Below are positions 9,571 through 58,107 of a stretch of DNA of 64,000 bases, one piece after another. The DNA is taken from IMG/VR virus record IMGVR_UViG_3300037418_004082; one strand, given 5' to 3'. Under the pieces are notes generated by a model, which saw nothing but the letters and a program-made list of their open reading frames with translations, was not told where the DNA came from and did no database searches. A program made the position numbers and the translations under genes. The DNA comes from a virus. Within the stretch, counting starts at the first letter, position 1; each line of letters starts with the position of its first letter.

Positions 9571-9945
9571 ATGACCGCCCACGCCGAACAATTCGAAGAG
9601 TTCGAGGTGCACGAAGTGCCCACGAACGGCCCGGTTCCGATGAACCGCGCGTTCAGGGCATCCGTGGTGCCCGCGAAGCAACCGCCGAAGCCTCTCAAGG
9701 TCAGCTCGCACAGCGACGTCGGCCCTCTGGCCGGTGCGATCACCGAAACTATGAAGCGCCACGGCGCCTGCGAGATGCGCGCCATCGGCGCGGCCGCGGT
9801 CAACCAGGCGATGAAGGCTCTCGCCATCAGCCGGGGCCAGCTCGTTACCTCCGGCATCGACGTCGTGATGCGACCGTCGTTCTACGAGACGGTCATCGAA
9901 GGCCGTCCCATGAGCGGGTTGAGCTTCATCCTCGACTGCGCCTAG
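9571..9945 (+). CDS. spoVS: stage V sporulation protein S (SpoVS) family, Alba-like fold
   Basis: LKVSSHS..GPLAGAI...MRAIGAAAVNQAMKALAISRG...GID closely follows the SpoVS consensus (AIGAGALNQAVKAVAIARG); GAGGAG RBS. Confidence 0.9.
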   Translation: MTAHAEQFEEFEVHEVPTNGPVPMNRAFRASVVPAKQPPKPLKVSSHSDVGPLAGAITETMKRHGACEMRAIGAAAVNQAMKALAISRGQLVTSGIDVVMRPSFYETVIEGRPMSGLSFILDCA

Positions 9946-27419: not shown

Positions 27420-27671
27420 CTATACTGCCGTGTGGCCGCACATCAAGCACGGCTGTCCGGGGGTGTGCTTCAACTTGATGGCGCGACTTTTCCCGTCACC
27501 CAGCTCGATGAGCCCTGCGATGGCGAGACCTTCGAGGTGGTAGTGCACCGTGCTCGTCGAGCGCAGGCCCGTACCCTCCGCGATCTCACGTACCGTTGGC
27601 GTGAGGCTGTTGGCTTTGAAGTAGGTCTGGATGAACTCCAGCACTTCGTTACGCGTATCCGACTTGCTCAT
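27420..27671 (-). CDS. LexA N-terminal DNA-binding domain only, with C-terminal CxxC
   Basis: EVLEFI...[25 protein letters not shown]...GLI...KSRAI; ends PCLMCGH; no Ala-Gly site or S24 peptidase. Confidence 0.9.
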
Positions 27672-36603: not shown

Positions 36604-36649
36604 GCGAATAAGCTCCGGTGCCGACGGGCGCTGAACCAGTCAGGCAAAC

Positions 36650-36678
36650 ATTATACCCGACCGGGTGTTCGAGTTCTA
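36650..36678 (-). promoter_or_regulatory. putative polA promoter with SOS-box-like site in the spacer
   Basis: Minus strand TAGAAC-17 bp-TATAAT; CGACC-GGGT-GTTCG at 36658-36671. Confidence 0.5.
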
Positions 36679-37044
36679 GTCCTTCGAGGGGTCTGGTGGC
36701 GCGGTTCCTGCCAAGGCAGTTGCGATGTGCACCTTCAGCCAGGACACGAAGCCCTGGGGGTCGGTCACGGCGTCCGCGCACTTGCCCAGGTAGACGAGCC
36801 AGGCACCCAGGCGCTCCGCCTCGCTCACCGGGACGGTGTCGCGACCTGCTATCGTAGGCGCCATGTCACCCATCTCCTCCGGTTCGTAGTACCAGCAGGC
36901 GCCCGGGATGTCGTGGTCCTTCCGGCACTGCGCGACCAGGATCATGGCCGCCAGCACATCGAGCCCCGTGTCGATCACCTCGCGGCCACCGGTGAGCTGC
37001 TGCAGGAACACGACCCTGAACGTGGGCTTCGGCTTGTCGGCCAT
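36676..37044 (-). CDS. hypothetical protein
   Basis: AAGGAGG RBS. Confidence 0.75.
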   Translation of the reverse strand: MADKPKPTFRVVFLQQLTGGREVIDTGLDVLAAMILVAQCRKDHDIPGACWYYEPEEMGDMAPTIAGRDTVPVSEAERLGAWLVYLGKCADAVTDPQGFVSWLKVHIATALAGTAPPDPSKD

Positions 37045-42486: not shown

Positions 42487-42654
42487 CTACTTCTTGGTTG
42501 ACGCGTACTGACTCGTGAGCGTCAGCACCTGCTTGCCAGCACGCGTCGCTTCGTCCAGCTTGAGGGCCCCTTCAGACCCGCCGCCACGTGAAGCCTCGAC
42601 GGCCTTCACGAGGTCGTTGAGCGTGTCGTACAACAACCGCGCGTCGTTCAGCAC
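42487..42654 (-). CDS. small hypothetical protein
   Basis: TAGTG coupling with primase stop; GGAGG upstream. Confidence 0.55.
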   Translation of the reverse strand: MLNDARLLYDTLNDLVKAVEASRGGGSEGALKLDEATRAGKQVLTLTSQYASTKK

Positions 42655-45600
42655 TACTTCAGCCTCCCATCGGCGAGCGCCACGCCGCGCTCCGTCACGC
42701 AGTACACGTACATCCCGTCGCCCTGGAAGCTCGCCACGTTGTTCGTGTTCGTGCGGCTCCACTTGCCGGGCTGGTTCTTCCGCCCCGGCTGCGACAAGAT
42801 GTAGCCACGTGCGGCCCAGTCGTTGGCGATGCTGATCTTCAAGTTGAACTGGCGCATCACGTCTTGCTGCACGCGCGAGTTGACGACCAGCTCGTACTTG
42901 CTGTCGTTCGGGTACATCAACTGCTGGCCGCGGAACGCGATCATACCCTCGTTGTTCATCGCCACGTCGGGCGACGTGCCACCCGCGCCCCAGTTCGCGT
43001 TCTTGATGCGCTCCATGAACGCGGTGAACGCCTGGTCGCACACGTCGGCCTTCTCTTCGATCGACGCCTCGCGCGTGGGGATGATGGAGCGGATCAAGTA
43101 GTCCATCGTCTTGCTAATGGGCAGCGCCACGCCCATCACCTCTTGCAGGACCTTCAAGCCCTGCGTGATGGCGGCTACAATCCGCTGGTCGTCGCCCACG
43201 AACGGCACGCCGCGCGTGCCCAGCCGGGCGTCGCGCTGCTCGACCTCCAACAAGGCACGCTCCAGGTTGCCCGGCACGTTATACCAGCGCTCCAGCTCCA
43301 CGCCGACCACGCCGTAGTGGTGCTCGAACACGCGCTGCGCCCGCTTGGTCGCGGCGACGTCCGGCAGCGCGTAGTCCTCGCTCAAGATGATGGTGCGGTT
43401 CCGCGCGCCCTTCTCCAACTGCGACGCGAAGTTGACCTCGCTGTTGACCATGTTCACGCCCTTGCGCGTCTCGCCGCCCTGGGCCTGCAAGGTCTTGGAC
43501 GAGGTCGTGCGGCGGTTGCCGTTCGCGAGCGAGTACAGCACGGCGTCCGCCTCCGCGGTGCTCGCCAACCCGCCCACGCCGCCCTGCTTGCGCTGGAACT
43601 CGTCCACGATCAGCGGCAGGTCCTGCATGTTGATGGCCTTGTCCTCCGTGCCCTTCATCGTGGACGAGGCACCGACCATCGCGTCCTTCTTGGCGTTGCA
43701 CCAGATGGACGTGGCCCACTCCGTGACCGTGTTCTTGCCCTTCGACGACTCCGTCGCGATCAGCACGATCGGATTACGCACGTGCAGCCAGCGAATGAGA
43801 GGCGCGCACGCCGACAGCGCCATCATCACCCACATCACCTTGTACTGCTCGAAGTCTTGCTGCGCGTGCCACTCGAACGACTCGCGCCACGGCTCCAGCT
43901 TGCCACGACGACTCAACATCGGGCCGATCACGACGTTCATGTCGGGCTGCGTGTCGTGGTACACGACGAGGCGCGGCCTATCCAGCTCGCTCTTCACGCC
44001 GGGCAAGTCGGTCGGAATCTGCCAACCGTACTCCGTCACGACGGGAATCAGACCGTTCGCACCAAAAACGGCCACCGTGTCGTTGAAGTATTCCGTGAAC
44101 TTGAGGGCGCGCGACGCGTCCACGGGGAAGTTCGGCAGCGCGTCCCACTTCTTGGCGAACAGGTCGGACACCTTCACCCAGGCGCTCTCGTCGCCGATGT
44201 TCGACCCCCACTTCACCTCCGCCCACTGCTGACGGCTCTTCGGGTCGATGCCGATACGCGTGACCCAGATGGGCTGCGGGCTCAACGCCTCGCGGTCGAT
44301 GAACTTGTTCTGGCCCACGCCCTTCTCGACCACCTTGTACGTGCCCTTGCGGTCCAGGTCGTACTTCGCCGTGTCGATCACCGTCTCGAACTGGTCCCAG
44401 ATGCGCGCCGCACGCTGATCGGACGAGCCGGCCAAGCCGTTCATCGACAGACCGCCGCCCCCGGGCATGGCCATCCCGCCTCCCCCGGCGCCACCCAACT
44501 GGCTGTCTCCCTCCCACGGCGGGGCGGCGGACTGGCCGGGCGCACCGGGCGGGGCCTGTAGCACGACGTGCTCCGCGACCATCGCCTGGTCGAGCTGCCC
44601 GTGCTTGGCCTCGACCAACGTCAGCGCCTGCTGGCGATCCTGCAAGGGCAGCGCGTTCACCTGCTGCAGCACCTGCGGCATCGGCGCCGCCGACAGGAGG
44701 ATCTGGTTCTGGAACTGCTGGAGGCTGGGGGCCGGCGGGAAGCCGACCATCTGGTGGACCTCGAACTTGGCCTGCTGCCACGAGAGCTGCTGACCGCTGC
44801 GTGCGAGCTGCGCGTTGCGCAAGCGGTAGTGGAACGTGTAGATGCCGCCGCCCTTCATGCCGTTGCCCGCGCACTCGCTGAAGCACACGTACATGCCCGT
44901 GTTCTTGTCCACGCAGAAGTTCTTCGGGTTGGCGCCGCCGTGGATGGGGCACGCGCACTTCCACTCGCTGCCGTGGTCACGGAGCTGGGGCAGGATGGTG
45001 CGGTAGTAGCGATCGATCTGCTCGCGCGTCCACGTGCCCGGGATGTGGGCCTGGTTCTTCTTGGGACGGCCGGGGCCTGCCGGCGCCTTGACGTTGAGCA
45101 CCGTGGGGTCGATGTACATCCACGGGTCCGACGCGTTGCCCTCCAGGTAGACCGCACGTCGTTCGACGGCCTCCGGCGGGGAGCTGGGCAGGTAGAAGAA
45201 GCGGTTGGCCTGGTTGCAGCTCGTGTCCATGCCCGCCGTGAAGCTGGCGCTGGTCAGGCCGCACTGGGCGAGTGCTTCGGTGAACGCCTCCTCGAACACG
45301 TGCGACGGCACCGGCTCCGCGAGGAAGATGATGACGCGGAACTTGGGCCAGGCCGGCGTGTGGTTGTGGCTGGTGACGAGGATGGACTTGAAGCCCGCCG
45401 TGCGCAGCATCGTCTCGACCGTGTCGAACGTCACGGGGTTCGGGATGCACTCCTTGATCTTCACGGTCTTCGTGGGATCGGTCGGGTGTGGGAACTTGCG
45501 CTCGATGCTGTTGTCGTAGTCGATGACGACGAGGTGCGTCTCGACGACCTGGTTCTTCTTGCGCGACGACGAGTCCTTGAAGAGCGACGGGCAGAACAGC

Positions 45601-45740
45601 TCGACGTCGGTCTTGTTCGGCGTGATGCGATGCGTCGTGAAGAGCTTGACGAAGTCGTCGAGCGACGCCTCCTTGGCGTACGGATCGGTCGCGTTCGTGT
45701 GCGACATCGTCGAATAGTGGATCGTATCCGCGCTCGACAT
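42654..45740 (-). CDS. primase-helicase: AEP-like N-terminal domain, CHC2 Zn finger, DUF927-type C-terminal NTPase
   Basis: VVIDYD, TSHNH, KFRVI; CPIHG...CFSEC; SKGKNT, LIVDE, N.NG..R. Confidence 0.85.
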   Translation of the reverse strand: MSSADTIHYSTMSHTNATDPYAKEASLDDFVKLFTTHRITPNKTDVELFCPSLFKDSSSRKKNQVVETHLVVIDYDNSIERKFPHPTDPTKTVKIKECIPNPVTFDTVETMLRTAGFKSILVTSHNHTPAWPKFRVIIFLAEPVPSHVFEEAFTEALAQCGLTSASFTAGMDTSCNQANRFFYLPSSPPEAVERRAVYLEGNASDPWMYIDPTVLNVKAPAGPGRPKKNQAHIPGTWTREQIDRYYRTILPQLRDHGSEWKCACPIHGGANPKNFCVDKNTGMYVCFSECAGNGMKGGGIYTFHYRLRNAQLARSGQQLSWQQAKFEVHQMVGFPPAPSLQQFQNQILLSAAPMPQVLQQVNALPLQDRQQALTLVEAKHGQLDQAMVAEHVVLQAPPGAPGQSAAPPWEGDSQLGGAGGGGMAMPGGGGLSMNGLAGSSDQRAARIWDQFETVIDTAKYDLDRKGTYKVVEKGVGQNKFIDREALSPQPIWVTRIGIDPKSRQQWAEVKWGSNIGDESAWVKVSDLFAKKWDALPNFPVDASRALKFTEYFNDTVAVFGANGLIPVVTEYGWQIPTDLPGVKSELDRPRLVVYHDTQPDMNVVIGPMLSRRGKLEPWRESFEWHAQQDFEQYKVMWVMMALSACAPLIRWLHVRNPIVLIATESSKGKNTVTEWATSIWCNAKKDAMVGASSTMKGTEDKAINMQDLPLIVDEFQRKQGGVGGLASTAEADAVLYSLANGNRRTTSSKTLQAQGGETRKGVNMVNSEVNFASQLEKGARNRTIILSEDYALPDVAATKRAQRVFEHHYGVVGVELERWYNVPGNLERALLEVEQRDARLGTRGVPFVGDDQRIVAAITQGLKVLQEVMGVALPISKTMDYLIRSIIPTREASIEEKADVCDQAFTAFMERIKNANWGAGGTSPDVAMNNEGMIAFRGQQLMYPNDSKYELVVNSRVQQDVMRQFNLKISIANDWAARGYILSQPGRKNQPGKWSRTNTNNVASFQGDGMYVYCVTERGVALADGRLK

Positions 45741-45782: not shown

Positions 45783-46058
45783 CTAGGAGGCGACCGCGTC
45801 TCGTTCGACGGCGACGATCGCCTCCGCCTCGCTGTCGATCCAGAGTTCGAGGGGGTTGGCGCCGAGCACGCGGCAGATAGCGAGGTAGATGCTGGTTTCG
45901 GGCTGGCGCTTGCCGCGCTCGTAGCGAGACAGGTACTCCTCGCGCAGCATCTTGGGGTTGCCCTGGTCGTCGAGGTAGCGCACGCGCATCGCCAGCTCGT
46001 GCTGGGTGAGGTTCAGGGCCGTGCGAGCAGCGATGCAGGCTTGGGCGTTGAAGGGCAT
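45783..46058 (-). CDS. XRE-family HTH regulator
   Basis: ARTALNLTQHELA...LSRYERGKRQP...ICRVLG. Confidence 0.85.
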   Translation of the reverse strand: MPFNAQACIAARTALNLTQHELAMRVRYLDDQGNPKMLREEYLSRYERGKRQPETSIYLAICRVLGANPLELWIDSEAEAIVAVERDAVAS

Positions 46059-46892
46059 GCGGGGTCCTTCTGCGAGGAGGGTGGGAGGGGGAGGGGTATT
46101 TATTTTGGCCGCGTGGCCGCACGCATAACTTTCGCCGCACAAAAGTTGAAACCCTTCGGGCTCCTGGTGTTTCCGGGTCCCGGGTGATGCGTGATGCGGC
46201 CGGGGGCGGTCGGAAATGAGGGGGAGGGGGTGTTTGTGCTTGGGGCGTGAGAGGGTGCGGGTGGGATGTGGATGGGGTGCGAACTTGAGGCGGGTCCCCG
46301 GGTCGGGAGCCTATCTTCGCAGATGCCCCGATACCTGTCAAGAGAGCATGGGTGAACAAACTTTGTCGTTGAGACTATGGTGTCGTGGCTCATGATGATC
46401 GGACGACGCGGCGTCGAAGAACGGCTGGAGGTTCATCGTCGCTGGGTCAACGAGTCAGGCGATCTGCATTCATATACATGCGAGGCGTTGGTGGATGGGG
46501 ATGAGAGGGCTAGGAAGGCGGTTGTTTTGACCCGGAAGGTCTCGGAGTACCCGCCACCCACCCACGGAGGGAAATAGGGTAGTTAGAGAGTGGTTGGGTG
46601 AGGTGCTGGAGTGGGGGAGTTAGGGTATGGATCGGTGGATTGGGTGGTTGGTGGGTGAGATCGGAGGGCGCCCATGTAGGTGCCGCGGGGTGTTCGGATC
46701 TCGAACGCTTGTTTGCACGGTTGCCTGCTGATCACCATTTTTATTTTCGCAACTTTTTCGATCGCCGGCCGCCGAAACAACAAAGCTATAGGGAGAATCC
46801 AGAAAATAACCACCCACCCCCTGGAACAAGAACACCATACGAGGACCGCCACCAACAACACCATAGGGAGAACAAGGGGGAGGGGGTCCCCA

Positions 46893-46954
46893 ATTAAATC
46901 ACTATATATATATATATATTTTATTTGATAGTCTTACAAAATAAATAAATAAAT
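46893..46954. repeat. AT-rich tract with (TA)8 and (AAAT)4, possible DNA-unwinding element
   Basis: (TA)8 at 46903-46918; (AAAT)4 at 46939-46954 in an otherwise GC-rich genome. Confidence 0.8.
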
Positions 46955-47166
46955 AGGAAAGGTTGGTGACGTCTTGTCGTTGGTATATCAACTCACGCTG
47001 TAAAATTCGGCGGCGTGCCTGTTTCGAATTTCGATGGTCCACGGGGTCCGGCCCGCAAACCCAGTAGGTTCGTGTCACATTGGCGCGGATACGTGGTTTG
47101 CGGGCCGTGTTACGTGCTGGTGATCGGAGGGGTCCCCTGGTATTTTATCGCGCACGTCTCGTACGT

Positions 47167-47292
47167 GTGGAACGGGTGTTCCACAAACACGCGAAATTCG
47201 ATGGGGTCCTCGACCGAAAAGTGGAACGGGTGTTCCACACGCGCTCGTAATTCGAGGGGGTCCTCGTCGTGTTTGTGGAACGGGTGTTCCAC
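47167..47292. repeat. three GTGGAAC-GGGT-GTTCCAC palindromes at exact 54-bp period (GAAC-N4-GTTC core)
   Basis: Copies at 47167-47184, 47221-47238, 47275-47292; spacers share AATTCGA.GGGGTCCTCG. Confidence 0.92.
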
Positions 47293-47529
47293 ATGCGCGG
47301 GGAGGGGGTGGGGTATTTTCGGGACGTCGAACGCGTCGTTGGGGAGGGTCTATAATTATGAACAAAATAAGAAAGGTAAAGTTGCGGTTAAACTGTACAA
47401 AATAAATTCAAGGGGGTCCCCCTCGCGCACGGCCCGAAAATTACAGGGGGACCCCTGCGCGAACGCATGAAAAACGCGTGACCGAACACGAAAACCGTGT
47501 CGATCACGCGGGGGAGGGGGTCTAATTAT

Positions 47530-48837
47530 TTATTGAACGAGCACGAGTTCGTCCGCCGCGCGGGTGATCCCCGTGTACAAAAGTTGCCGACGCGTGTTCT
47601 GGTCGCCGAAGGGCTCGTAGATGTATATGACACGCTTCCACTCGGAGCCCTGGCTTTTATGACATGTGATGGCGTAGCCGTACTCCAGGTTGTAGTGCGG
47701 GTTGTGGTTGTCCGGCTTCACCTCGTCCTGGGGCTCGAACCAGTCCAGGCTGCAGACCAGCTCGCGGAACTCGTGCTGGGTGTCCTCCCAGCCCTGGACG
47801 CTCAAGTAGAGCGTGCGCTCGTGGCGGTCCACGTCGCGGCTGGGCACGTCCTTGAGGACGCGGCAGTGCCAGCCGTTGATCAGCGGGAGGCCGCCGTTGG
47901 TGCTGCGCTCCTCCCAGTCGTTCTTGCGGTTGATCAGCTTGTCGCCCTTCTTGGGCAAGCCCTCGAACCCCAGCATCTGGCGCATCACGCCGTTCAGGTG
48001 GTCCTTGGTGCGGTTCAGCCCGCAGATGATCTGGTCCGCGTGCTGCAGGTCGCTCTGCATGAGGTAGTTGTAGGGGATGACGCGGAACTGCGGGCTGTAC
48101 ACGCCGTAGGGGAGCTGGTAGCCCTGGCGCACCTGCATGCTGGCCCACAGGATGGGGTTGTCCGCGGCCTGGCGGTGCACCTGCGTCAGCACGGCATCCG
48201 GCTTCTGCAGGAACGGGTTCATGCGGTCCTTGACCGGCGGGAGCTGCTCCGGGTCGCCCAGCAGCAACACGGGCGTGCCCAAGGAGAGCAGGTCCGCGAG
48301 CACCTTGCGGCTGACCATCGAGACCTCGTCCACCACGAACAGCCGCCACGGGATCGTGTCGGGCGTGCGCAGCTTGAAGCCCTTCACACGTTCCTTCTGG
48401 CGCCCCGTGTGCGGACACGTGTACTTCTCCGTGATGGGCACGTAGATGGTCTTGTGAATGGTCTCGGCGGGCGTGCCCTTGTTCGTGAGCACGAGCGCGG
48501 CCTTGCCGGTATACGTCATGTACTGCACGTCGTTCGGCTTCAACCCCAGGGATTCGATGGCCTGTTTCAAGACCGTGCTCTTGCCCACACCCGCGTAACC
48601 CGCGACGGTGAACACGAGCTGTTGTAACCGCAAGTGGTTCCACCAGTAACGAATCTGCTTGACCACGGACTCTTGCTCGCGCGTCAGCGTGATGCTGCTC
48701 GATGGCAAGATGATACGCGGCTTGTCGTCGTCAGGCAGCACGAGCTTCGTTGGAACGGACGTAGCCTTCTCCTGCTCGCGTTGCGCCTTGTAGGCCGCGG
48801 TGACGCGGGCGATGGCGGTCTCGAACCTGTCGGTCAT
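47530..48837 (-). CDS. RecD/Dda-like SF1B helicase
   Basis: GYAGVGKST, YTGKAA, VDEVSM, GDPEQLPPV, HRQA, YAITCHKSQGSE, LYTGITRA. Confidence 0.93.
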   Translation of the reverse strand: MTDRFETAIARVTAAYKAQREQEKATSVPTKLVLPDDDKPRIILPSSSITLTREQESVVKQIRYWWNHLRLQQLVFTVAGYAGVGKSTVLKQAIESLGLKPNDVQYMTYTGKAALVLTNKGTPAETIHKTIYVPITEKYTCPHTGRQKERVKGFKLRTPDTIPWRLFVVDEVSMVSRKVLADLLSLGTPVLLLGDPEQLPPVKDRMNPFLQKPDAVLTQVHRQAADNPILWASMQVRQGYQLPYGVYSPQFRVIPYNYLMQSDLQHADQIICGLNRTKDHLNGVMRQMLGFEGLPKKGDKLINRKNDWEERSTNGGLPLINGWHCRVLKDVPSRDVDRHERTLYLSVQGWEDTQHEFRELVCSLDWFEPQDEVKPDNHNPHYNLEYGYAITCHKSQGSEWKRVIYIYEPFGDQNTRRQLLYTGITRAADELVLVQ

Positions 48838-56856: not shown

Positions 56857-58107
56857 GTGCTGCATAAAGTCTGGAGTGGGGCCGTCCGTTACGTGGCCCT
56901 GGGTCGTCTGGCGGCCCAAGATGGTAAGTTTCTCGTCCACGACGTGGGGGTTGACGACACGCTCTCCTTGCGCCTGCCTGGCGAAACGTCCGATCCCGTG
57001 AGCATCAAGGCGATCCGCGCACACACCAATGACGTCTTGGAGGTCGCGCAGATCCCCGACGTCGAACCGTCGGACGAACAGGTGTTCGAACTGACGATCG
57101 AGCGCACCATCGTGCACGGCAAGTGCATGGAGTGCGCGCAGCAAGGACTCGTGCGCGAAGGCTTCAAGCCCGGCACGATCGATGGCAAGTTGACGCTGTT
57201 GCCGACGCACCGTCACTGCCAGTGGAACGGTTCGATCCTGCCGGACGGCTACATCGGCAACTACTCCGACGACGCGCGCACCATGATGGAACAGATGCTG
57301 CTCGCGACGGGGCAAGCGCGCCTGTCGTTCCCGATCGCGCGTGGCAAGAAGACGGTGCGCATGCACGTGCTGACGTTCGCGGAGAACGACGCGGTGCGCG
57401 AATGGCAGGACGACTTCCTGCGCAAGAACAAGGACGCGTCGGACGTCGTGTACTTCGAGCAGCAGACGCGTGCGCACCTCGCGCTCGCGCTCGACGACGA
57501 CGGCAACGGCAAGAGCCCCGCGCTCGCGCTCGCCAACGTGGACGTCAACAAGTTCTCGATCTTCCAGCAGCTCTTGCTGCGGATGGCGCACTTCGGCCAG
57601 TACCCCGACGCGTTCTACCGCAAGCTGACCGACATCTCCGCGCGCATCGACGGCCTCGCCGAAGAGGTGTGCGCGCAGCGCATCGACGACGACATCAGCG
57701 AGGACGATCTGCTGCAGCTCGGCGAGGACCTCGTGCACAGCGAGCCCGTGCTGCAGGCCATCAAGGTGTTCGGCGGCCGCAGCGAGCTGTACTTCACCGC
57801 GGTCAACAAGGACGTGATCGACGCGGCGGACAAGTGGGCGGAATCCATCATCACCCAGATCCGCAAGGAGCAGGGCGGCGACGTGCTGACCGTTCGCGAG
57901 AACGAACTGCGTTCCATCGCACGCTTCGCGGCGGAGTTCCGTGGCGACGCGCGTGTGTCGTTCGACGAGTCGAGCACGTTCGACGAGCGTCTCGGTTACT
58001 TGACGGAGCTGTGCCACCCGTTGTGGAACATGTACCTGCACGCGGGCAACGTGTGGCGTCAGCGCGCTCACCGTGCGATGGGGGTCGATACGCTGGGAAA
58101 GTCCTAG
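56857..58107 (+). CDS. hypothetical protein (416 aa), possible tail/baseplate assembly chaperone, frameshift upstream ORF
   Basis: GTG after GGAG; ends CTG GGA AAG TCC TAG. Confidence 0.75.
   Translation: MLHKVWSGAVRYVALGRLAAQDGKFLVHDVGVDDTLSLRLPGETSDPVSIKAIRAHTNDVLEVAQIPDVEPSDEQVFELTIERTIVHGKCMECAQQGLVREGFKPGTIDGKLTLLPTHRHCQWNGSILPDGYIGNYSDDARTMMEQMLLATGQARLSFPIARGKKTVRMHVLTFAENDAVREWQDDFLRKNKDASDVVYFEQQTRAHLALALDDDGNGKSPALALANVDVNKFSIFQQLLLRMAHFGQYPDAFYRKLTDISARIDGLAEEVCAQRIDDDISEDDLLQLGEDLVHSEPVLQAIKVFGGRSELYFTAVNKDVIDAADKWAESIITQIRKEQGGDVLTVRENELRSIARFAAEFRGDARVSFDESSTFDERLGYLTELCHPLWNMYLHAGNVWRQRAHRAMGVDTLGKS
58095..58101 (+). other. -1 programmed ribosomal frameshift slippery heptamer G GGA AAG
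   Basis: X XXY YYZ in correct frame, identical to the lambda G/GT site; -1 frame open to 58460. Confidence 0.75.

Follow-up and report, generated by a model that had tools for sequence, protein, structure and literature searches.

In phage P4, the alpha primase-helicase binds the origin and the crr region through its C-terminal winged helix. The P4 sites are copies of a repeated octamer, TGTTCACC, and lie in non-coding DNA away from the alpha gene; a literature search for this octamer found nothing among the papers covered. The iterons of phage lambda recur with a period of ~20-24 bp. In the lambda origin, dyad iterons for the O protein are located beside an AT-rich tract (PMC7466680). The DUF927 helicases SaPIbov1 Rep and Cch are self-loading initiators whose C-terminal domain reads iterons beside the gene (PMC7581432). 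A promoter of phage GIL01 is controlled by host LexA (PMC4551915). This study concerns an array of three identical dyads in an origin-like region of the window, which is the whole 64,000-nucleotide stretch analysed here from IMG/VR virus record IMGVR_UViG_3300037418_004082. A first-pass annotation had read the array as Gram-positive-type SOS (LexA) boxes on the basis of the GAAC-N4-GTTC core of the Cheo/DinR box (CGAAC-N4-GTTCG). Judged from the comparisons below, the array is most likely a set of lineage-specific iteron-type binding sites in an origin-like hub.

Three identical 18-bp dyads, GTGGAACGGGTGTTCCAC, were located by exact match on the plus strand at 47167-47184, 47221-47238 and 47275-47292, with a period of 54 bp, as the first-pass annotation had described them. 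No further match to GTGGAACGGGTGTTCCAC was found in the window with up to 3 mismatches allowed (0.08 expected), and three copies were reached in 0/100 shuffles. Tandem Repeats Finder reported a 54-bp unit at the array, in 2.5 copies with 81% matches. Alignment of the units showed that the identical block is 19 nt and not 18, as each of the three dyads is followed by an A on its 3' side. The GGGT spacer of the dyads is non-palindromic, and 3/3 copies have the same orientation. A second 18-nt motif, AATTCGAKGGGGTCCTCG (CGAKG-GGGT-CCTCG), is found between dyads 1 and 2 and between dyads 2 and 3, with 17/18 positions identical. This motif is a dyad with a GGGT centre as well, CGAGG-GGGT-CCTCG standing beside GGAAC-GGGT-GTTCC. 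The sites are as follows.

47167-47185, plus strand: dyad 1, GTGGAAC-GGGT-GTTCCAC plus the conserved 3' A, the 19-nt block common to the 3 copies (exact match).
47195-47212, plus strand: second motif, copy 1, AATTCGATGGGGTCCTCG (CGATG-GGGT-CCTCG), direct-repeat family D1.
47221-47239, plus strand: dyad 2, identical to dyad 1 (exact match, unit alignment).
47249-47266, plus strand: second motif, copy 2, AATTCGAGGGGGTCCTCG (perfect CGAGG-GGGT-CCTCG dyad), direct-repeat family D1.
47275-47293, plus strand: dyad 3, identical to dyad 1 (exact match, unit alignment).

When units 1 and 2 were compared, the dyad block was identical at 19/19 positions and the second motif at 17/18, while the remaining positions matched at 5/17, which is the random level. 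As in iteron origins, near-identical sites therefore lie amid diverged spacer DNA. Because the rest of the unit is at the random level, the repeat units are old, and each contains two separately constrained blocks under selection. The dyads had also been said to lie on roughly the same face of the DNA, and the agreement is indeed only rough; 54 bp is 5.14 turns, and successive sites are offset by ~50 degrees.

The array is located in a gene-free gap in what is part of a novel, uncultured high-GC (63%) phage of ~183 kb. The identical primase-helicase was found on public contigs of up to 182,679 bp and a near-identical variant on contigs of up to 193,568 bp. No close relatives were found in GenBank phages or IMG/VR. 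The gap, its AT-rich segments and the genes on one side of it are listed here.

46059-47529, no strand: gene-free hub with the array, 1,471 bp (gene calls on public contigs, motif counts).
46891-46960, no strand: AT-rich core, (TA)8 plus (AAAT)4, GC 13%, the most AT-rich 70-mer in the 64 kb and a candidate DNA-unwinding element.
47342-47411, no strand: AT-rich stretch with GC 30%, ranking second by AT content among the 70-mers in the window.
45783-46058, minus strand: XRE-family helix-turn-helix (HTH) protein, 91 amino acids, candidate binder (Pfam HTH_3/HTH_31, gene calls).
42654-45740, minus strand: DUF927 primase-helicase, 1,028 amino acids, candidate self-loading initiator and binder (Pfam DUF927 E 7e-19, CHC2 zinc ribbon).

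All neighbours of the gap are on the minus strand. A Dda/PIF1-like helicase gene (47530-48837) and then a ResIII helicase gene lie on one side, and the XRE HTH gene and then the DUF927 primase-helicase gene lie on the other; the array is downstream of the former pair and upstream of the latter. The surroundings of an iteron origin are present in that AT-rich 70-mers flank the array, ~207 bp away on the left and ~50 bp away on the right, and in that the primase-helicase start is 1.4 kb away with the two helicase genes opposite. The gap is also rich in other repeats. It holds 7/15 window copies of GGGGTCC, 4/4 window copies of GGGGAGGGGGT, and a hairpin (18-nt) at 47049-47107; one more GGGGTCC, the eighth, marks its left margin at 46061. 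No Rfam match was found in the gap.

The sole gene call inside the gap was a 66-amino-acid open reading frame (ORF) at 46377-46577 on the plus strand (L005, JGI contig), with a poor codon score of -0.44. Two strains differ at 11 alignment columns in the gap, and 8/11 of these fall in this ORF, within 46465-46511. The ORF is probably not a gene.

Relatives were identified by a full HMMER search with the primase-helicase, which gave full-length matches with 34-39% identity. Two relatives have the same arrangement as the window, with a ResIII helicase, a Dda-like helicase, a long gap without genes and then the primase-helicase. The syntenic gap is 796 bp in L067 and ~2 kb in both L068 and an ENA contig. 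In the relatives the XRE gene lies on the opposite side of the primase gene. Their gaps have AT-rich cores, runs of G/C and private long-period repeats, among them a 46-nt unit present twice at 72 bp and AAAACCYGGTAAAATGC, which occurs ~6 times. Conservation in related phages had been proposed as a check on the dyads; the syntenic gaps of the relatives are without GAAC-N4-GTTC, GTTCCAC dyads or GGGGTCC. The repeats in the L067 and L068 gaps belong to different families, and the motifs of the window are absent from both, as expected of lineage-specific origin sites. On this comparison of sequences, the hub is a feature of the clade and the site sequence is lineage-specific. Because the gap is kept and the repeats differ, the sites behave as though co-evolving with a phage protein, as would be expected of them, and not as a host-wide operator. 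The strain contigs were uninformative, L005 being identical at the array and L004 at the near-box of the PolA promoter described below.

The window resembles SaPI/SCCmec-type origins (SaPIbov1 Rep, Cch) in that a DUF927 helicase adjoins gene-free, repeat-rich, AT-rich DNA; here the helicase is fused to a primase. The C-terminal 148 amino acids of the primase-helicase have a sole, sub-threshold Pfam match, to HTH_56, the HTH of Cch (E 0.024). A scan of metagenomes for paired GTGGAAC-N4-GTTCCAC found four loci (L062-L065). L062 and L063 were set aside as low-GC, satellite-like repeats without genes. In the gut contig L065, positions 859-1010 contain eight GTGGAAC/GTTCCAC 7-mers, two GTGGAAC-N4-GTTCCAC dyads among them. 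They are located directly after a gene that ends in Pfam HTH_56 (E 4e-16) and before a ResIII helicase. The 7-nt arms of the window dyads are thus found directly after a Cch-HTH gene, which is a further likeness to SaPI/SCCmec elements. The L065 array is the probable origin of a gut mobile element.

The window also resembles lambda-type origins, with few identical ~19-bp dyad sites in one orientation and an AT-rich segment beside them (PMC7466680). It differs from them in that no O-like initiator was found among the window ORFs scanned, the sites are outside any gene, and the AT-rich core is ~200 bp away. Many arrays turned up when viral contigs were scanned for paired GGAAC-N4-GTTCC, and a lambda-type layout with this core was seen in M. 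abscessus prophages. In phiGD21-1 and its relatives, 4-6 GGAAC-N4-GTTCC dyads are present inside one gene, mostly with a 33-bp period as compared with 54 bp in the window. The gene matches O-like replication initiators (PHROG 391, 3171, 2447), and the arrays are probable lambda-type origins. Because they sit in an O-like initiator gene, a Cheo-type core in an array is not specific to LexA.

The M. abscessus prophage dyads have the form CACCGGAAC-GGCN-GTTCC and occur in L007 (5807-5974) and also in L016, L023, L025-L027, L034-L039 and L045. In GenBank the dyad-bearing gene is annotated only as an HTH protein, and no origin is annotated.

Phage P4 is similar in having a primase-helicase fusion as initiator and repeated sites away from its gene. 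It is different in that alpha belongs to another helicase family (D5_N / Primase_Cterm) and in the sequence and layout of the sites. The kind of element described here is already known. What differs is the detail, namely the long period of 54 bp, the interleaving of two dyads with GGGT at the centre of each, and the co-occurrence of a Cheo-type core and a LexA head in one phage.

From the repeated sites and the selective way in which they are conserved, together with the AT-rich DNA on both sides, the genes nearby and a gap that keeps its place in relatives, we infer protein binding by a phage-encoded factor and origin function. A sequence-specific phage protein would bind each 19-bp site. The first candidate is the DUF927 primase-helicase, which may act through its Cch-like C-terminal HTH; we felt that this assignment to the C-terminal domain should be regarded as tentative, a serious candidacy that falls somewhat short of an even chance. 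The interleaved CGAGG-GGGT-CCTCG sites would be bound by another factor, or by the first one in a different mode. A phased nucleoprotein complex on both types of site could then help to open the flanking AT-rich DNA, and the opened DNA would permit helicase loading and the start of priming. An initiator that needs the outer GTG/CAC arms, which the first-pass annotation had itself named as an alternative, fits the data at least as well as LexA does.

Several observations weigh against iteron-type sites read by the primase-helicase. The SaPI/SCC array is directly downstream of the gene, while the window array is upstream, ~1.4 kb away and beyond the XRE gene. SaPI/SCC origins have many short, close iterons, while the window has three 19-bp dyads at a 54-bp period with a second motif interleaved. 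In a SaPI-type origin, an AT-rich core immediately 3' of rep lies between mirrored sets of short, closely phased iterons; the window does not have this layout, its long dyads all sharing one orientation. The HTH_56 match is below the family cut-off (15 bits as compared with 26), hhalign of the primase-helicase C-terminus against the L065 HTH_56 domain was not significant, and a structure model of the C-terminal region was unusable, with a predicted local distance difference test score (pLDDT) of 49.5. L065 is a single 1.2-kb contig and is partly chimeric, with a pstB fragment at its start. GC skew gave no clean origin signal in the window. Finally, the near-copy of the dyad with a GGGT spacer in the PolA promoter is explained by a transcription factor no less well than by an initiator.

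The likeness of the dyads to SOS (LexA) boxes is real, yet insufficient to show LexA binding. The Cheo core is exact in all three dyads (12/12), and the claimed 13/14 fit to CGAACRNRYGTTYC, a published consensus (PMC2248561), is correct. A count of GAAC-N4-GTTC against background, which had been suggested, gave 5 in the window with ~1.0 expected, 3/5 being the array dyads. The phage LexA-like protein that had been proposed as a binder was also found to be real, with its gene on the minus strand. Two features away from the array bear on LexA.

27420-27671, minus strand: mini-LexA, 83 amino acids, LexA DNA-binding domain only, candidate binder (Pfam LexA_DNA_bind E 5e-15).
36658-36671, plus strand: near-box CGACC-GGGT-GTTCG with the same GGGT spacer, in the promoter of PolA (PolA on the minus strand), between a weak -35 and a perfect TATAAT.

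Against these likenesses, the dyads carry G at both flanking positions where the Firmicutes/Actinobacteria consensus has C (CGAAC / TCGAAC). Their spacer is GC-rich, asymmetric and invariant, and conservation extends 3 bases past the box on each side. In a LexA regulon the spacer and flanks vary around a fixed core, whereas 19 nt are identical in all copies here. The setting is probably not that of a promoter. A weak sigma-70-like hit, TCCACA-18-TAAAAT, overlaps dyad 1 on the minus strand, and promoter-like hits in the array region are at chance level (2 with 1.0 expected). Of the proposal that host or phage LexA binds the array, the core match and the LexA head stand, while the 19-nt conservation, the second dyad and the other repeats of the relatives disagree with it.

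It is possible, though doubtful, that the uncleavable mini-LexA binds the three dyads and the PolA near-box as a private, damage-insensitive circuit for replication-gene transcription, origin use or both. Its recognition helix, STSTVHYHL, is close to SSSTVHGHL of full-length Listeria-type LexA (alignment A2) and unlike SPNAAEEHL of E. coli LexA. The Listeria-type lexA gene has the boxes AGAAC-AAAC-GTTCG and CGAAC-CTTT-GTTTG upstream, and because of its Listeria-like helix the mini-LexA is a credible reader of GAAC half-sites, of which the array offers three exact GAAC-N4-GTTC pairs. Its closest relatives in GenBank phages are the mini-LexAs of Bacillus phages. The PolA promoter heads a gap-free row of minus-strand genes that includes the mini-LexA gene, so that the near-box would make autoregulation possible. 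The 8-mer GGGTGTTC is enriched in the window (8 with 2.3 expected), with 6/8 copies outside genes. However, the protein has no LexA dimerisation domain, its gene is 20 kb from the array, and the second interleaved motif has no link to LexA. The kept outer arms, spacer and 3' A exceed known LexA boxes, and the only perfect CGAAC-N4-GTTCG in the window, at 57075, is inside a gene. In Bacillus phage 11143, which encodes a mini-LexA with 47% identity, GAAC-N4-GTTC is absent from all 39 kb, which shows that mini-LexAs need no sites in their own genome. When genomes were scanned with the mini-LexA, the only finds were two LexA-like genes of Clostridia, and the control genomes had no loci. The stricter proposal that the mini-LexA uses the triple array as maximal-affinity Cheo-type sites, together with the PolA near-box, in a private LexA-like circuit at its own origin is rather unlikely. 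In addition, the array might draw off host LexA and in this way disturb the SOS response of the host. Binding of the array by host LexA as true SOS boxes, which would couple replication or transcription to DNA damage or soak up LexA, was judged very unlikely. The core and the 13/14 fit would suit it, natural boxes vary at position 1 as in the AGAAC box upstream of Listeria-type lexA, and GIL01 provides a precedent (PMC4551915). However, the best phage relatives of two window helicases (32-37% identity) infect mostly Gram-negative hosts, whose usual LexA boxes differ (PMC2248561), which is a weak hint against it; the host-LexA claim of the first-pass annotation is not supported. The G flanks and the identical, GC-rich spacer count against host LexA as well, as do the lack of such a box in the syntenic gap of the relatives, the lack of any other promoter-associated perfect box in the 64 kb, and the origin-repeat arrays that share the same core.

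Among other transcription factors, the adjacent XRE protein could use the dyads as operators for promoters in the gap, making the array an early/late switch and not an origin. The XRE gene is at the edge of the gap, dyad symmetry and a length of 18-19 bp suit HTH dimers, and the sigma-70-like hit overlaps dyad 1. Nevertheless, the dyads are >1.1 kb from the XRE start with none in the 300 bp upstream of the gene, promoter-like hits do not exceed chance, and in the relatives the XRE gene lies across the primase gene, which together make this explanation improbable. The parS consensus is TGTTNCACGTGAAACA, and its left half is TGTTCCAC. A host chromosome protein, DnaA or ParB, might accordingly be recruited through the half-site GTTCCACA. 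With the kept 3' A, TGTTCCACA occurs three times in one orientation and resembles the DnaA box TTWTNCACA at 8/9 positions, and GTTCCAC is found 22 times in the window with 9.5 expected. In L064, two GTGGAAC-CACG-GTTCCAC dyads with palindromic flanks (9701-9763) are inside parB, which adjoins parA and the gene of a DnaA_N-domain protein; these are candidate parS-like sites with the half-sites in everted order. Recruitment of either protein is extremely unlikely, since position 2 of the DnaA box is mismatched and the other half fits less well still (7/9), the everted order and different spacing of the parS halves misfit a ParB dimer, and the perfectly kept left arm and spacer are left unexplained. 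No ParB homologue was found among the window ORFs scanned (about half). Lastly, the repeat might not be a binding site in duplex DNA at all but a small gene in the minus frame 47292-47110, or RNA or single-stranded DNA hairpins with GGGU loops. The minus frame runs for 60 codons without a stop, 54 bp is 18 codons, VEHPFH appears three times in an 18-amino-acid repeat, and the codon score is 0.13 as compared with -0.74 +/- 0.16 for shuffles. However, this score comes from six dyad codons counted three times, and the unique codons score -0.01 as compared with 0.67 +/- 0.24 for real genes. The frame uses very rare codons, namely three TTT (a codon that makes up 2% of those for Phe), TTA, CGA and ATA. 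It lacks a Shine-Dalgarno sequence, was not called as a gene on public contigs, and matched nothing in Pfam or PHROG. The VEHPFH codons are without synonymous differences although adjacent bases are saturated, which places the constraint on DNA and not on protein. As for hairpins, both types of motif can form stems closed by a GGGT loop, and the strand folds with z = -6.6, but any palindrome folds and the z-score is uninformative; a T-run follows only 1/3 hairpins, and Rfam gave no match. Both the minus-frame ORF as a gene and the RNA element were rejected on these grounds, and a repeat that is not a duplex-DNA site is hardly credible. The exact 18-mer had two matches in IMG/VR (L001 and L002), both coding for VEHPFH within proteins, a number close to the chance estimate.

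If this orphan clade of ~183-kb soil phages has its origin at the array of iteron-type sites, the array provides a concrete entry point to the replication of the phage. Choosing between the primase-helicase tail, the mini-LexA and the XRE protein as binder would give a function to at least one unstudied protein. If the binder were the mini-LexA, the phage would be re-using the LexA DNA-binding head outside the SOS response, and if its proposed circuit is true, the head of a bacterial SOS repressor would have been repurposed as a regulator of an origin or of replication genes. The locus also gives a caution for reading sequence alone, as one and the same 19-mer can be read as containing an 8-base Cheo core, a look-alike of the DnaA box and half of a parS site.

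The near-box lies in an internal PolA promoter at 36640-36690 on the minus strand. This promoter has a perfect TATAAT and is located directly after the stop of the upstream gene, 60 nt before PolA. Read on the minus strand, the near-dyad in its spacer is CGAAC-ACCC-GGTCG. Another Cheo-type box, with one mismatch, was seen in the gap at 46686-46716 on the plus strand, in the sequence GGGTGTTCG-GATCT-CGAAC-GCTT-GTTTG, where it overlaps an everted GTTCG/CGAAC pair. In form it is like the second box upstream of Listeria-type lexA.

A T7-promoter-like sequence, CnATAGGGAGAA, has two copies in the window, both in the gap; with so few copies, both in one place, a genome-wide T7-type promoter was ruled out. 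Words of the type (T)ATAGGG are paired in the syntenic gap of three related phages, which are the window phage, L067 (5629 and 5701) and L068 (952 and 980). The window copies, CTATAGGGAGAA and CCATAGGGAGAA, are at 46786-46797 and 46861-46872 on the plus strand and resemble the start region of a T7 promoter. The pair is just before the AT-rich core, a layout that recalls the T7 primary origin. Its orientation with respect to the primase gene differs between the window and the relatives. An 11-bp perfect inverted repeat, GGGGTCCCCCT / AGGGGGACCCC, is present at 47413-47455 with a T-rich tail next to it on the minus strand, and is likely the terminator of the helicase operon. The L068 gap has a similar inverted pair, GAGGGGGGTCT / AGACCCCCCTC.

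Repeated GGGGAACCnnGGTTCCCC palindromes were seen in mostly AT-rich viral contigs, chiefly giant-virus metagenome-assembled genomes (GVMAG), several of them as tandem arrays of ~49-55 bp. The contigs are L010, L017, L020, L028-L031, L041, L043, L044, L047, L050, L054 and L055. Each palindrome is followed by a word of the CCCCTCC type in most of these contigs.

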